From positions 1,488,001 to 1,552,000 of the forward strand of contig AP026124.1 of NCBI GenBank assembly GCA_030295235.1: 64,000 bases of DNA, in the 5' to 3' direction. The notes beneath the pieces were generated by a model that ran no database searches, had not been told where the DNA came from, and saw nothing but the letters and a program-made list of their open reading frames with translations. The translations under genes and the position numbers were made by a program. This DNA comes from Fistulifera solaris (lineage: Eukaryota). This document shows positions 8,974-60,875 of the stretch, piece by piece; positions within the stretch are counted from its first letter, which is position 1; each line of letters opens with the position of its first letter.

Positions 8974-9641
8974 TATAACCAGAAGAAGATTCAAAATGTT
9001 CAACACAAAGACAATTATTGACTATAGCTTCGCTTACCGATGAAACTTGAAATAATTGAAAAAGGACCGCTTTATTTTTCGTGGTGCGTGTCTTCAAACT
9101 AACGTCTGTCTGATCGCCGTTTGTCGTCGTTGGACCATATCCGGGTTTCCATCTGTCGTTAACTTTGCCAACGGTAGCTACGTGAAAACCACGTAGACAT
9201 TCGAATATCATTGCATCTTTCATCCTTTCTACGGTTTTAGATCAAATTAATGACGAAGATTGTTTCGGGGGTCGACCTATCTATGATGGTGACAGCGAAA
9301 AAGACAATGGTGCAGAATGGGTCCGAAATATTGTTGTGTTCAAAACACCTCATATCCGGGTTTCCTCTGTTGACAAATAATAGTTTCCCAACCTGGTACT
9401 GGTACCGGTACCAGGTATACGGCGGCTATATGGAAGTCGCGTAGCCCGAAACCTTATCCGATAAAAAGACGGTTTGGCATGGAAAATGATTTATTGCGAC
9501 GAAAGATGAAGCAAAGGAAACATATACTCCTTTGGATGAAGCGATCAAAAAGAAACAAAAGGCGAAATCTATGGCAAACTTACGCCATTCTCTAAAGACA
9601 AAGGACTCAGAGCAAGGCACAATAGTTTAAAATTCAAAGCG

Positions 9642-16789: not shown

Positions 16790-17149
16790 GATAGTTCCTT
16801 CTTTTCATTTCTTTAGATTCTTGTTGACGTTCAGATTGAGTGGCTATTGTTATCTTCGTCTTCGTCTAAATTTTGTCGTCATTGATGTCTGCTGTTGGAG
16901 TGAGAAATGGGGTGTCGGTAGTCGGTACCCTGGCGCTAATCCGGTACCGGGTACCGGTACCGACTGTATCCGTTGAAGCTTATTTCTACCGCAACCATGT
17001 TTTGTACTATGCTGCAAGAGTGCCTCAAGACTACATCACAGCATACAACAACACAACTCGCACCTCGCACGCCTACAAGGGTATGCTCTTTTGAGGTTGC
17101 CTAAAAAAAATTGCGCTGTGCCTCTCATTTGTGTTGATGCAATAATAGC

Positions 17150-29702: not shown

Positions 29703-29944
29703 CGGCAATATCTCTGGCTATTTCAAACTGTCGACCAATGGTTGACGGTCGGTCATTTATTCAATTTTAAATTGTGAGACTACCAGGTACCAGGTATGAG
29801 TGACGACGAGAGAAATGCGCGGAGAAAAAAAATGAGTCACATCTTTCCTCCACGCGGTGCGGCCCTGCGGCCATTGTATTAGTAGGGCACCGGGTACCGG
29901 GTACCAGAACCGGTACCGGTACCTGATGGAGCGGGTACTTCCGA

Positions 29945-47036: not shown

Positions 47037-47479
47037 GGAAGATTGGATATGAAAAGAAGGGTGCGGGGTCGTTAGCACAAAGAAAAATGCCACCGTCCAT
47101 GGTCGCCGATCGACGCATGTCGCATGTGGTCGGCACGAAAAACGGACCAAGGGGAGACAACCAGTAGAAAGCTACGTAGCTTTTGTACTAGAATGATCGA
47201 ATCCCGGATACGTTGTTTTGCGAAATTTAGTCACGAATAGCTAAGTGGGGTCAAGTGTCACAAGTCCATAGTCCATACAAGGTACCGGTACCGGTACCGT
47301 ACCGGTACTCCATACTTTTTTTATCAGCTCGAGTCCGCAAAATTAAAATCAAATCTGGCTGTCGATGAGGTTGTCTCGCAAAGTGTAACATATTTACAAA
47401 AACAGAAGATAAACACTACTCCGTACTTAGAATGCAGCGCAACTGGTTACCCGTCAACGATTATCCTACCAAAGAAATT

Positions 47480-54880: not shown

Positions 54881-55117
54881 ATCATGGAGATAAGGCTGGA
54901 ACGGGAAACAAAGGCATTCTATGTTATATAATGTGAATCTTGCTTGACTTCCCAAGGTCCTCCTAAGTGTAGCAACCTGGTCTTCAAATAGTTCATCTGT
55001 TTCGCTGTAACAAACCATAGTCTGGAATGTGTGCTGCGTGCTGCCACTTCTTTTCAAATTTATCTCTATATCTATTACGGAGTATCTACCGCGATCCGCG
55101 ATGCGTCCGTGTGTGTC

Positions 55118-55628
55118 TGTTGAAATTTCTACCGCGGTCTGTAACTGCTCTCGGCTATCGGGGACTCCACACACCCCAGACGAAAGACTATTGAAACAAC
55201 GAACTTTTGCTCCAAACACTCGTTTACAGAATTATGACGATTTCCTCACGATTACTTTCGCTTTCCTCTTTTCACTGGTCTCCGATCTGATCTTGATCTG
55301 ATCATGATCCGATCTTGCCAAGTCCATTTCTCCAATAACAACTTTAGGATAAAATAGCCCTTTCTGCCAATCCACCAGATTCTCCATTATTGCATGTTCC
55401 TTAGCAACTAGCAACAGTCATCGTCCATAATTGCATACTGGATTCTTCCGTGATCCCAAATCCCCAAACATATAGTTCGAAACACTTCCGAGACTCCTTT
55501 CACGAGTAGAATGCTTTCCCAATAAACTAGGCGGTCATTTCGAACCATTCCGACATCCGATGACGTGTCAACTCATGACTGAATAAATCTTTCAGTCCGA
55601 CACTCAACCTCGACCTCGCTCTTTGACA
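55118..55628 (-). repeat. 3' LTR (511 bp)
   Basis: Direct repeat of 60062-60571, preceded on the minus strand by a polypurine tract at 55629-55639. Confidence 0.95.
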
Positions 55629-58600
55629 TCCTCCCTGTCGGCTGCTAAGATTAACTGCGTCATGAGTCCTTCTCTAACAACAGGCACCAAAAGATCATGG
55701 ATTTTCTCTGTCACATTCTTGGTTTCCAGATCTGCAATATTCCTTTCCGATCGAATAAACTTCACAACCAGCCTGGCTTCTTCCTTCTCCGTTGCAGCCA
55801 TCATCTCCCTTATAAAATGCATTCGAATATCAATGTGTTTCGTCCTATTCCCCACAACTTGGTTTTCCATCAAGAAGATTGCGCCCGTGTTATCTTCAAA
55901 CAAGGTAGCCGGTCGAATCTTCACCTTCGGAAACAATTCTTCGAATAACATCTGCAAAAACTTGATGTCCGTCGCACACGTAGATGCCGCATAATATTCC
56001 GCCTCCGTACTTGACAGTGTCACCGCCGGTTGCAACTTGCTTGAAAAGCCACACAAACAACCTCCAATGGTAACAAAGTAGCCAGTAACACTTTTCCGCG
56101 TCTCCTTGTTCGTAGCAAAGTTTGAATCCACCCATGCGTAAACCTTCAAATTAACAGGCTCGCGCAACTTCAAATGAACGTCCGTACTCTCGAGATAGCC
56201 GACCAATCTCTTCATCGCTCTCCAATGTTCTTCACCTGGCGAATCCATAAACATTGCAAGCTCCCTAACTGCATTTCCACATTCCGGAGCTACTTTCCGC
56301 ACCAGCCACATGAGACGTCCGAGAAACTTCCGATACTGATCCTTATTAACTGGATCGCCTTCGTTCTTCACAAGCGATTCCCCTGGATAGCCCGGTGTCT
56401 TCTCAGCTTTCAACGGTCCAATCAGCTCCTTCCAATCCTTTACTATCTCGTCTTTGTACTCATCCATTCGCACTTCGTAGAACTCTCCTGCTTCATCCGA
56501 TTTTCTCTCGTACCAAACTCCCAAGTGTTTCTGAATCGGGCCCATCTCGGTAATGTTGAAGCGCTTCTTGATCTCTCTCTTGAACCAATTGATTTCTTCT
56601 TGGGGACCGGCAAGGATACAATCATCGACATACACCACAATGATTAATACTGTCTCGCCGTTCACCACTTTAAACCAGACACACGGATCCGCAGCACTCT
56701 GAATAAGCCCCAGCTTCCTCAATTGGGCACAGTAGAGCATGAAGTACTCTCGTGGACTCTGGACCAAACCGTACATCGCCCTCTCCAATAGGATGATGTA
56801 GTCAATTAACTCTTCATGCGTGATGTACCCAAACTCATATAGCCCAAAGGGCCATTCAAGATACACCTCCTCTCTCAACTTCGCTTCTAGAAACGCAGCC
56901 TCAACGTCAATAACTTCAGTGACCCACATCTTCTTCCACATGTAAAGTACCACTGCCAAAACCATTCGAACCGACATGTCCGATGCAACAGGTGAATGCG
57001 AAAGAGTGAAGTCCACACCAGGGATTTGAACAAACCCCCGCGCACAAGTCCGAGCTTTGAAACGAATTCCCGTTGCCTCTTTCTTCTTTTTGAAAATCCA
57101 CTTCGGCGTAACAGGCTTCCGTCCTCTCTCCTTCATCTGCTTTCTAGGAACCATCTTCCAAGCATCTCTTTTAATGAAATTTTCAATCTCCTTCTTCATT
57201 GCCTCTTTCCACTTGTCTGCATCCGGACCAACCAAGGCTTCCTTGTAAGTTTTCGGCGCACCAGGATCCGACGCCAACTCCGTATTCAAAACGTAGTGAA
57301 AATAACCTTCCGACACATCGATTGTATTGATCTCTCCTTTGGCGTTCATTGTTGGGTTATATGAAGTGTCCAGCCTTGCCATTTCTCTATTCAGTCTTTT
57401 CATCGTCGATTGCGTCTCTTTCCGTTGATTCGGTGCTGGAGTATTGTCCGCCGTAGCCTCGGGTACCAGAGCTTCCGTAGGACCTTCCACAGCCACTTCG
57501 ACAACTTCCTCTGCCGCTTTCTCTTCCACAACTTTCCTCCCAGAGCTTCCGTAGGACCTTCCACAGCCACTTCGACAACTTCCTCTGCCGCTTTCTCTTC
57601 CACAACTTTCCTCCCTGCTCCAGCATCGACATCTTCGAGCATCACCGGTTTGATTGCGACTTCCTCCCCAATTTGGTCATCCTTTAAGTCGACTTCCATT
57701 CCAGCTGCAAACATCCTTAACTCTGATGCAACTGAAGCACTCGATCCATGCCAGTCTGCCCAAGTGACGTCACGTGAGAGAATGACAATATTTTCATCCG
57801 GCTTGTAAACACGATACGTATCGCCCGCATGCGAATCCGCGTACCCAACCATCACGCATTTCACTGACTTCTTCTCCAACTTGGGCTGTTTGTTTCGTAA
57901 AGTCACATATCCGATCCGCCCCCACTGAACCAAGTGTTTCAGTATCTTAGGATGCTCGCCGTACCACGCATAATCAGGGCTCGATTCCACATTCCGATTC
58001 GGGACAGCGTTATCCAACTTCGTTGCCGTGTGAACAGCCTCGGGCCATAACTTTCCTTGATGCTCATCCGACAACTTCGCCGCCAACATCATCGCAAGGG
58101 CCTTATCGCGAATTGTCGTGAACTTCCTCTCAACAACACCGTTCATCTGCGGAGTATGCGGGGCAGTAAACTCCATAGTTATGCCCCTCGCCTCACAGAT
58201 CTCCTTGAATGTTCCGTTCTCGCCTGCATTATCACACCGAATGTACTTTACGATTACGTTCGGATCTCCTTTCAAGCGATCAAGAAATAGCGTCATGACT
58301 TTGCCAATCATCGACTTCTTTGTAACGAAGTAACTCCAAGCTTTGCGCGTGTAATCATCCACCAATAAGATCCAGTAGCAACTCTGTCCCAACGATTTCT
58401 TGTAGGGCCCACTCGTGTCCACGTAGAATCGTTCTCCTTTCGCCGTTGCTTTGATAGCCGTCGACTTGCACACCGCCTTTGCTTTCGCCTTCGCATACGC
58501 GCACGCCTCGCATGTCTCCTTGGTTCCAGTTAACTCGATTCCCAACTGTTTCATGAGACTCTTCAAAGGAATGTCGCTGGCGTGTCCGTACATATCGTGC

Positions 58601-60011
58601 GCAGCATTTATGTCCATCTTCACTTTGGTCTCCACCGCATGGACATCTGACTTAACAACGCTAGCCTTCAAGTAGTATAACCCATAGTGTGACTGAGGTA
58701 CCGTCAACACACTCTTTCCGGAGGGGTCAGTGATCTTCATCGCACAACTGGTTATCTCAATCTTGCACCCTTGCTTCACTAAAGCCCCAGTACTGATGAT
58801 ATTCTTTGCGAACGTTGGCGCCACCTTGACTTCACTCAACTTCATAGTACCACCCACAGTAGCGAGCATGAGTGTACCCTTCTTGTGTACTTGGACTTCC
58901 TTTCCGTCGCCGACGACCAAATACTCCTTCGTCGAAATAACATCGCGCAAAATCGTTTCATCCAAAACAACATGGCACGTCGCTCCACTGTCGAGAAGAA
59001 ACCTTTCCTTGTCGTTGACTCTCGACGTTTCGACCGCACCAACTTGATGAACGACGCCACAGAACTCTTCGCCGCCTTTGCCGACCTCATAGCACATGCC
59101 AACGAACATGTTCAGGTCCTTGTTCTCCGACTTCGGATCCTTGCCGTTCGACTTGTCCGGACACTCGCGAGAGAAATGGCCTTCCTTGCCACAGTTGAAG
59201 CAGACTTTCTTCTTGTCGCTCTTGCACTCCGCTGCCTTGTGTCCTTGTTTGCCGCAGTTGCGGCACTTTCCTTGAACTTCTTCTTAAAACCACCCTTGCC
59301 CTTTTCGACGTTTAATGCTAAATTTTTATTTTCTTTTTTGTCTTTTTTCTTTTTCTTCGTTTTCTTCATCGTTCTTGGGCTTTGAAACAGCGCTTCCACT
59401 TGTTCCGGATCTCCTTCTCGAGGTCTTCAATCGAGGTCTCGTTGATCTTTCCGCTCAACTTCGTGATCACATCCGAATACTCGTCAGGAAGGTTGGCCAA
59501 GTAGTGGGCTTTCAAAACGAAACTTGGCTTCACATACTGCGATCCGATTGTCTTCAAACGGTTCTGTAACCGATCGCACTCCAGGAAGAACTTGTCAGGG
59601 TCATCTTCCTTCGACGCCAACTTGCACCGTCCGAACTCCGCCAACACCTCCGCCAAATCTTCCTCGCTGTTCCGGGGCGTACTTAGCATCCAAAAGCTTG
59701 AATGCGTCTCTCGCATCACCATCCGCTCTCTTGACAAGACCCAAAGGAACGCCTTCGCACGCAATCACCAACAAATCGATGATCTCGAGATTGCTTCGAT
59801 ACAACTCCTTGTCCTTCGCCGTCGCCGTCGCTCCCATCGCAACTTCCTTCGTGGGGATCTCGGCCTTCAGGTCATCGAACACACTTGTCCAACCTCTCTT
59901 CGTGATCAGCGACATCGTCTTGAACTTCCAGTCATCGTACGACTTCTCAGCGACCTTGTCGTCCAACGGGTAGAAGGTCAAAGCCCTCATCTTCTCTCCC
60001 TCGTCGGTCAT
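55604..60011 (-). CDS. gag-pol polyprotein of the copia element, interrupted by several frameshifts
   Basis: Fragments 59601-60011 and 59366-59764 (gag), 59087-59293 (zinc knuckles), 57400-59109 (PR and IN) and 55604-57529 (RT and RH). Confidence 0.9.
57467..57614. repeat. Perfect 74-bp tandem duplication inside pol
   Basis: cagagcttccgtaggacc...caactttcctcc occurs at 57467-57540 and again at 57541-57614. Confidence 0.95.
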
Positions 60012-60061
60012 CTTGTCTTGTCTCGTAAACTTTTTTTTTCTCAACGCCACGCTTATAAGCG

Positions 60062-60571
60062 TGTTGAAATTTCTACCGCGGTCTGTAACTGCTCTCGGCT
60101 ATCGGGGACTCCACACACCCCAGACGAAAGACTATTGAAACAACGAACTTTTGCTCCAAACACTCGTTTACAGAATTATGACGATTTCCTACGATTACTT
60201 TCGCTTTCCTCTTTTCACTGGTCTCCGATCTGATCTTGATCTGATCATGATCCGATCTTGCCAAGTCCATTTCTCCAATAACAACTTTAGGATAAAATAG
60301 CCCTTTCTGCCAATCCACCAGATTCTCCATTATTGCATGTTCCTTAGCAACTAGCAACAGTCATCGTCCATAATTGCATACTGGATTCTTCCGTGATCCC
60401 AAATCCCCAAACATATAGTTCGAAACACTTCCGAGACTCCTTTCACGAGTAGAATGCTTTCCCAATAAACTAGGCGGTCATTTCGAACCATTCCGACATC
60501 CGATGACGTGTCAACTCATGACTGAATAAATCTTTCAGTCCGACACTCAACCTCGACCTCGCTCTTTGACA
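60062..60571 (-). repeat. 5' LTR (510 bp)
   Basis: Reads TGTCAAAGAG...TTTCAACA on the minus strand. The only difference I saw from the 3' LTR is one indel (ttcctcacg vs ttcctacg). Confidence 0.95.
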
Positions 60572-60659
60572 TGTGTCTCTGTGTAACGGCGGTACCGGGT
60601 GTCTGGGTCACGGTTTTGACGTTCGTTTTTTCGTTCAGCGAATTTATAATGTACTTGCC

Positions 60660-60875
60660 AGAATTTCTGGAGACGGTGTATTTGATCTTACAGACAATCT
60701 GTGTACCAGTTACTTTCTGGAAATTATTAGACGGTGTGTTTGATCTTACAGAAATTCTGTGTTTGCTCCAGGAACTCTGGGGACAGTTTTTTTTGATAAT
60801 ACAGAAATTTCTGTGTATTTTCCAGAAGTTTTTTCACGATGTGTTTTTAACTTACAGACATTCTGTGTACTTCCC
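60660..60875. repeat. Degenerate tandem array of 4 units (53-58 bp) with a palindromic ACAGA-N3/4-TCTGT core
   Basis: Cores at 60690, 60748, 60801 and 60854. Units share (a)cggtgt..tttgatcttACAGAnatTCTGTgt. Confidence 0.8.

Follow-up and report, generated by a model that had tools for sequence, protein, structure and literature searches.

A Ty1/copia element on the minus strand

The window (the whole stretch of DNA analysed, 64,000 nucleotides) contains a minus-strand Ty1/copia element, with its 5' end at 60571 and its 3' end at 55118. The 5' LTR (60062..60571, minus strand) is 510 bp long and has the form TGT...CA. The 3' LTR (55118..55628, minus strand) is 511 bp long, and one inserted base is the sole difference between the two. 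A polypurine tract (PPT; 55629..55638, minus strand) is flush with the 3' LTR. The element is young and belongs to a multi-copy family with an unbroken relative, P0121 (1437 aa). Copies of a 6-bp target-site duplication, GACACA, flank the insertion on the left (60572..60577, minus strand) and on the right (55112..55117, minus strand). The duplication sits in an AC-rich stretch, and a single site is without power to fix the length for the family. Among plant LTR elements, 0.4% are given a 6-bp duplication in one survey (PMC6317226).

Gag-pol (55604..60011, minus strand) has the copia order. Briefly, gag with two CCHC knuckles is followed by PR, IN, RT and RNase H, and the frame is shifted in the assembly. 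Pfam domains were found in the order zf-CCHC, Pol_BBD, gag_pre-integrs, rve and RVT_2, with the rve and gag_pre-integrs matches slightly below the cut-offs. Domain order, RVT_2-type RT, TG...CA LTRs, PPT and target-site duplication are all those of a Ty1/copia element. Among the protein relatives, those with a name come from two diatoms, Fragilaria crotonensis and Cylindrotheca fusiformis, which makes a diatom host likely. By description, the element also resembles the diatom copia group CoDi6: Maumus et al. 2009 (PMC2806351) report a gag with tandem CCHC knuckles for CoDi6.2-6.5. Neither tRNA nor a primer-binding site (PBS) is mentioned in the main text of that paper.

To assess the assembly, contigs of four of the nine listed sequencing runs were compared with positions 59150-60700; one of these, X1, may stem from the source sample. 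The reads contradict the assembly at three single-base frameshifts within gag and at the A-run at 60031, which is 2 bases too long. These small indels in or before gag (59271, 59381, 59674 and 60031) conflict with contigs of at least two runs. Assembly errors in homopolymer or low-complexity tracts are their probable origin.

Repeats were seen at three further places. A perfect 74-bp tandem duplication (57466-57615) lies between IN and RT and shifts the pol frame; P0121 has one copy. In the LTRs, a GATCT-type short tandem repeat (60227-60260 and 55284-55317) forms a 20-bp imperfect inverted repeat. Beside the insertion, positions 60660-60870 hold several degenerate copies of a ~40-bp unit (ACACAGA...TTCTGTAAGATCAAA-like), a repeat that Tandem Repeats Finder did not call. 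A dispersed repeat is suggested by the many loose ends that sequencing runs X1 and X6 show at this place.

A palindrome flush with the 5' LTR

On the minus strand, the terminal CA of the 5' LTR is followed by CGCTTATAAGCGTGGCGTTGA. As originally predicted, there is no TGG at +1; the first TGG is at +13. The place of the PBS is taken by a perfect 12-bp palindrome, CGCTTATAAGCG (60050..60061, minus strand), which occupies +1..+12. The 16-bp palindrome of the original prediction (60048..60063, minus strand) was confirmed. It arises because the LTR-terminal CA pairs with TG, and only the 12-bp core is kept in relatives; the extension is family-specific. The predicted fold also contains the further extension that had been proposed across a 3-nt bulge. 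Here, a U5 arm, TCAAC (60063..60067, minus strand), pairs with a leader arm, GTTGA (60041..60045, minus strand), in a possible U5-leader stem.

Perfect palindromes of at least 16 bp occur four times in the 64 kb. Hence, length by itself is not rare. Palindromes of at least 12 bp start at 34 of the 64,000 window positions, and the rare feature is position. The edge of the palindrome is flush with the LTR, as is the PPT at the other end. Elsewhere in the window, GGTACCGGTACC-type palindromic repeats recur at 9399-9414, 16950-16961, 29909-29923 and 47281-47299.

Mis-assembly at the palindrome had been raised as a possibility. Contigs of two runs argue against this. Contig X1-1 (59150-60091) and contig X2-10 (59910-60201, no other letters) both span the junction, and the differences listed for them include none in 60041-60063. 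A diverged X6 contig, covering approximately 59961-60095 as judged from distances to its ends, differs at 60008-60029, with none of its listed differences in the palindrome. In run X4, the junction is outside coverage. A second X6 contig, of low depth (10.8), joins 59988 to 60055 and thereby skips the gag start codon as well as the 3' half of the palindrome. This contig is probably a defective copy.

We searched metagenome contigs for relatives using a gag alignment. From 122 pattern matches, two loci were confirmed, L001 and L002. L001 is a near-complete element with an unbroken frame of 1444 codons, and its LTR end is set by its own 3' LTR. L002 is on a contig without a 3' LTR; its probable LTR end was placed using the terminal bases and the distance to gag. 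In both, CA is followed by CGCTTTAAAGCG, with the same 12-mer. Hence, a perfect 12-bp palindrome is present at +1..+12 in all three readable junctions (L001 83-94; L002 703-714). The centre is swapped: the central pair is AT in the window and TA in both relatives. In L001 and L002, no TGG precedes the start codon of gag. The PPT of L001 has the same 10 letters as that of the window. Two other observations concern the LTRs of the relatives. The L001 LTR has a 12-bp palindrome at LTR positions 293-304, and the L002 LTR contains two 75-bp direct repeats (301-459) that are 92% identical.

The three elements are distant. The gag N-termini of the two relatives are 47% (52/110) and 46% (48/105) identical to that of the window, and 55% (76/137) identical to each other. 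The LTRs are unalignable, with a best cross-hit at E 0.26. In an ungapped comparison of the junctions, 10 of 12 palindrome columns are invariant. The same is true of 1 of the next 28 bases and of 4 of the 31 LTR columns before the terminal nine. This conservation rests on three junctions, two of them (L001 and L002) from one metagenome. In a quick tree of 33 rows, one RT-RNase H clade holds 14 rows (SH-aLRT 99), and its basal split separates the window from L001. Hence, the palindrome site is probably ancestral to the clade.

The palindrome was then examined for covariation, a check that the original prediction had called for. All 18 cells pair over the three elements, and the sole varying pair has changed on both sides. 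This mirrored pair change (AT/TA) is the only compensatory change and is not significant, being reached by 166 of 500 shuffles. The varying pair falls at the loop position of a single-strand hairpin. Hence, only a two-strand duplex makes use of it.

Scans of viral contigs for more junctions confirmed 0 of 2, 1 of 26 and 0 of 17 matches. The one locus, L119, has RT only, and its junction lies beyond the contig. This diatom-type copia RT sits at one end of a record (G002) that is 120 kb long and classified as viral; in the tree, no branch length separates its protein from P0023. With a degenerate junction pattern, 12 matches were obtained in viral sequences, none of which adjoins a gag relative. 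A genome scan gave one locus from six matches. This locus (L120) is a 25%-identical copia outside the clade, with TGGTATC before gag. It is a circularly permuted copia contig (1-6140) in a bacterial genome bin (G001), and probably represents eukaryotic contamination of that bin. Searching around in the same genome gave no further junction, and plasmids gave no match.

Candidate primers

Canonical priming by a tRNA 3' end requires a TGG close to the 5' LTR, a few bases away at most, and this arrangement is absent from the window. There is also no tRNA gene in the 64 kb. The original prediction considered the downstream TGG, TGGCGTTGAG, as an ordinary PBS for a mature tRNA. The sequence does start with TGG. 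However, it is 12 bases away from the LTR, the TGG at +13 is missing in L001 and L002, and the bases are already explained by the palindrome extension and the leader arm. This reading is almost certainly wrong. For comparison, Neumann et al. restricted their test of imperfect TGG sites to distances of 0-5 bp from the LTR.

A cleaved tRNA-Ile(UAU) was also put forward as the primer. Window positions +4..+17 complement a formally valid anticodon loop, C32 U33 UAU A37 A38. There is a precedent in plant Bianca elements, 92% of 260 of which are reported to use half tRNA-Ile (PMC6317226). Hence, half-tRNA-Ile priming here would not be new. The tRNA-Ile(UAU) claim is not supported by its stem. In the window, tRNA positions 39-41 are unpaired with the implied stem (0/3), so a 3-nt spacer is needed, leaving the primer 3 bases away from the LTR. 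Of the stem pairs open to testing, at positions 39-40, 0 of 2 form. In the same register, L001 and L002 specify the anticodon TTA, which reads a stop codon, and their implied stems (GGTCG and ACCCG) differ from that of the window (CCACG). Other registers are no better: Leu TAA gives 0/2 stem pairs, and Phe AAA is impossible for the window. A perfect even-length palindrome is also incompatible with the complement of a stem that has a 7-base loop. Like the element described here, Osser, Bryco, Gymco-II and Ty5 (half tRNA-iMet), Bianca (half tRNA-Ile) and FunCo1 (internal tRNA-Lys) are copia elements with a PBS that does not start with TGG. In those cases the PBS matches a single tRNA that is cleaved within its anticodon stem, whereas no single valid register fits all three junctions here. 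A primer derived from tRNA-Ile(UAU), or from another tRNA fragment, is very unlikely. Separately, the 14-base Ile motif had at least 116 exact matches in viral contigs. ARAGORN identified six tRNA-like genes among these, none of them Ile, a result that does not bear on diatom tRNAs. We conclude that the site is real, conserved and probably not a tRNA site.

Self-priming of the Tf1 type does not fit. Tf1/Tf2, Tj1, the Tf1/sushi group and plant TAR and Tcn1 are similar in that they use no tRNA and prime themselves (PMC4600332, PMC6317226). In the Tf1 type, the primer is the 5' end of the transcript and the LTR complement is at least 10 bp. Here, the longest Watson-Crick complement of the post-LTR site inside the LTR is 5, 4 and 5 nt in the window, L001 and L002, respectively (the L002 LTR may be incomplete). 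Allowing G-U pairs, the longest complement in the window LTR is 8 nt, and this is off register.

Hairpin or self priming, or a dimerisation signal, had been suggested as other roles for the palindrome. Both are live options, although a single-strand hairpin is weak. The predicted energies of the palindrome are -17.2/-16.6 kcal/mol for the homoduplex and -2.5 kcal/mol for the hairpin. For 42-nt junction RNAs, the predicted gain of the dimer over two separate monomers is 11-12 kcal/mol in each of the three elements. Any palindrome predicts a stable homoduplex. Hence, these energies are not independent evidence. Pairing between U5 and leader can be drawn for the window (TCAAC/GTTGA), L001 (TTCAAC/GTTGAA) and L002 (TTAAC/GTTAA). 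The window junction folds at -10.8 kcal/mol (z -1.83), and 13 of 200 shuffles are as good. The L001 and L002 junctions fold no better than shuffles (z -0.22 and +0.11, respectively).

These results bear on three further explanations. The palindrome might be only a signal for dimerisation or packaging, as are PAL1 and PAL2 of Ty1, or a site for a dimeric protein, with the primer elsewhere. A stable homoduplex is predicted, and Ty1 requires the palindromes of its 5' UTR to form RNA dimers (PMC6844567). Set against this, a dimer signal has no need to start exactly at +1. The reading also leaves no primer site, given that 1 of the 28 columns past the palindrome is conserved, and retroviral dimer sites exist beside a PBS (Donnart et al., PMC5445492). 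We regard a signal of this sort, separate from priming, as unlikely. Snap-back within one RNA is less likely still. This would involve a 4-bp hairpin atop the U5-leader stem, cut on its 3' side and priming on its own U5. The 3' end would have the same geometry as in a two-strand duplex, the arms can pair in all three elements and the window junction does fold in this way. However, the hairpin has little stability by itself, shuffles fold as well as the junctions of L001 and L002, and the four loop bases are self-complementary in all three elements though a loop needs no such property.

The primer could instead be another RNA ending in the same 12 bases, such as a non-tRNA host RNA, an antisense transcript or a small RNA of the element. 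An external primer would explain the exact start at +1 without cleavage of the genome, and 10 invariant letters of 12 are also expected if that primer is fixed. It leaves the self-complementarity and the AT/TA swap unexplained. Rfam found nothing at the junction, though such a search is blind to a 12-base complement. We consider an external RNA improbable.

Proposed priming between two genomes

Palindromes near the start of copia RNAs have been described before. In Ty1, PAL1 and PAL2 are self-complementary sequences near the RNA 5' end that can pair two genomes (PMC6844567). Ty1 also keeps a normal tRNA-iMet PBS, whereas here the palindrome occupies the PBS place. The closer parallel is fungal GalEa (Donnart et al. 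2017, PMC5445492). In these elements a 10-bp palindrome, the Conserved Hairpin Site (CHS), occupies the position of the PBS, and in most cases a partner lies downstream. Hence, the claim of an undescribed priming mode has to be narrowed: such a palindrome is already published, with no mechanism given. The authors state that no known model fits the CHS, and a bivalve TRIM paper cites the site but offers no mechanism (PMC5445492, PMC6934838). A phrase search turned up the CHS in only two papers. Our literature search, with subscription journals and Repbase outside its scope, found no account of a palindromic site in diatoms and no tested mechanism.

GalEa and the element described here are both copia elements. 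Each has TG...CA LTRs and lacks a tRNA PBS, and its 5' LTR is followed at once by a short perfect palindrome, here in all three junctions. In both, variants stay palindromic and a larger stem is possible at the LTR junction. The palindromes differ in length, sequence and register. The GalEa site (CHSeq1) is 10 bp and includes the last A of the LTR, whereas here a 12-bp core of other sequence begins at +1. CHSeq2, the 9-bp inverse complement downstream in GalEa, has no counterpart; the best complement within +13..+90 is 4 nt in all three elements. Some GalEa families are also without CHSeq2 (PMC5445492). The proteins differ too. GalEa has the motifs C2C4C4H, D54D35E, KSRLV, QTDD and CQPEA, whereas P0121 has two CCHC knuckles, D61D33E, KARTCA, YVDD and VAPEC. 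The target duplication is 5 bp in GalEa and 6 bp here. Hence, on protein motifs, zinc knuckle and target duplication, the element is not GalEa. By analogy, it appears to work like a CHS element while standing outside that group.

Our preferred interpretation is that a copia lineage has swapped its tRNA PBS for a 12-bp palindrome, and primes the minus strand from its own RNA in trans. We put this forward tentatively, at slightly less than an even chance. The basis is the palindrome, which lies exactly at +1..+12 and is kept in three distant elements, together with the absence of any tRNA or LTR complement that is conserved. By analogy, the published palindromes at the same place in 44 fungal GalEa families (PMC5445492) would lend support.

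In the proposed mechanism, two genomic RNAs in a particle would pair via the palindrome to form a 12-bp duplex. A cut in one strand, directly beyond the 3' edge of the palindrome, would follow; the RNase H domain is the probable nuclease, as is reported for the Tf1 RNA duplex. Tf1 reportedly cuts its primer from its own RNA, with the PBS adjoining the LTR and a U5 stem nearby. The freed 3' G would pair with the first base past the CA of the other RNA, and DNA synthesis would start exactly at the LTR end. The U5-leader pairing may help to present the palindrome site. Dimerisation and priming would then be a single event. Plus-strand synthesis would copy the primer. The site is its own complement; hence, the plus-strand copy of the primer could pair, and the second strand transfer could proceed as with a normal PBS. 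The duplex is symmetric, and cuts in both strands would break the template. The two-genome model therefore needs asymmetry.

The fungal CHS has been an exception without explanation since 2017. Here, a second, unrelated copia lineage has a palindrome at +1, no CHSeq2 and a mirrored change at the centre. Hence, the data suggest that self-complementarity is itself the functional feature. LTR retrotransposons are credited with three types of primer (PMC6317226). We propose, with the same reserve of a little under even likelihood, a fourth way of starting LTR reverse transcription, beside priming by a whole tRNA, by a half tRNA and by the Tf1-type 5' end of the element's own transcript. RNA genomes would pair by a palindromic PBS, one being cut as the primer, with independent origins in a diatom copia clade and in the CHS of fungal GalEa. 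This young, multi-copy family has an unbroken relative in P0121, so cultures may allow the ends of its RNA and cDNA to be recovered. If true, two-genome priming may explain part of the elements annotated 'no PBS detected'.
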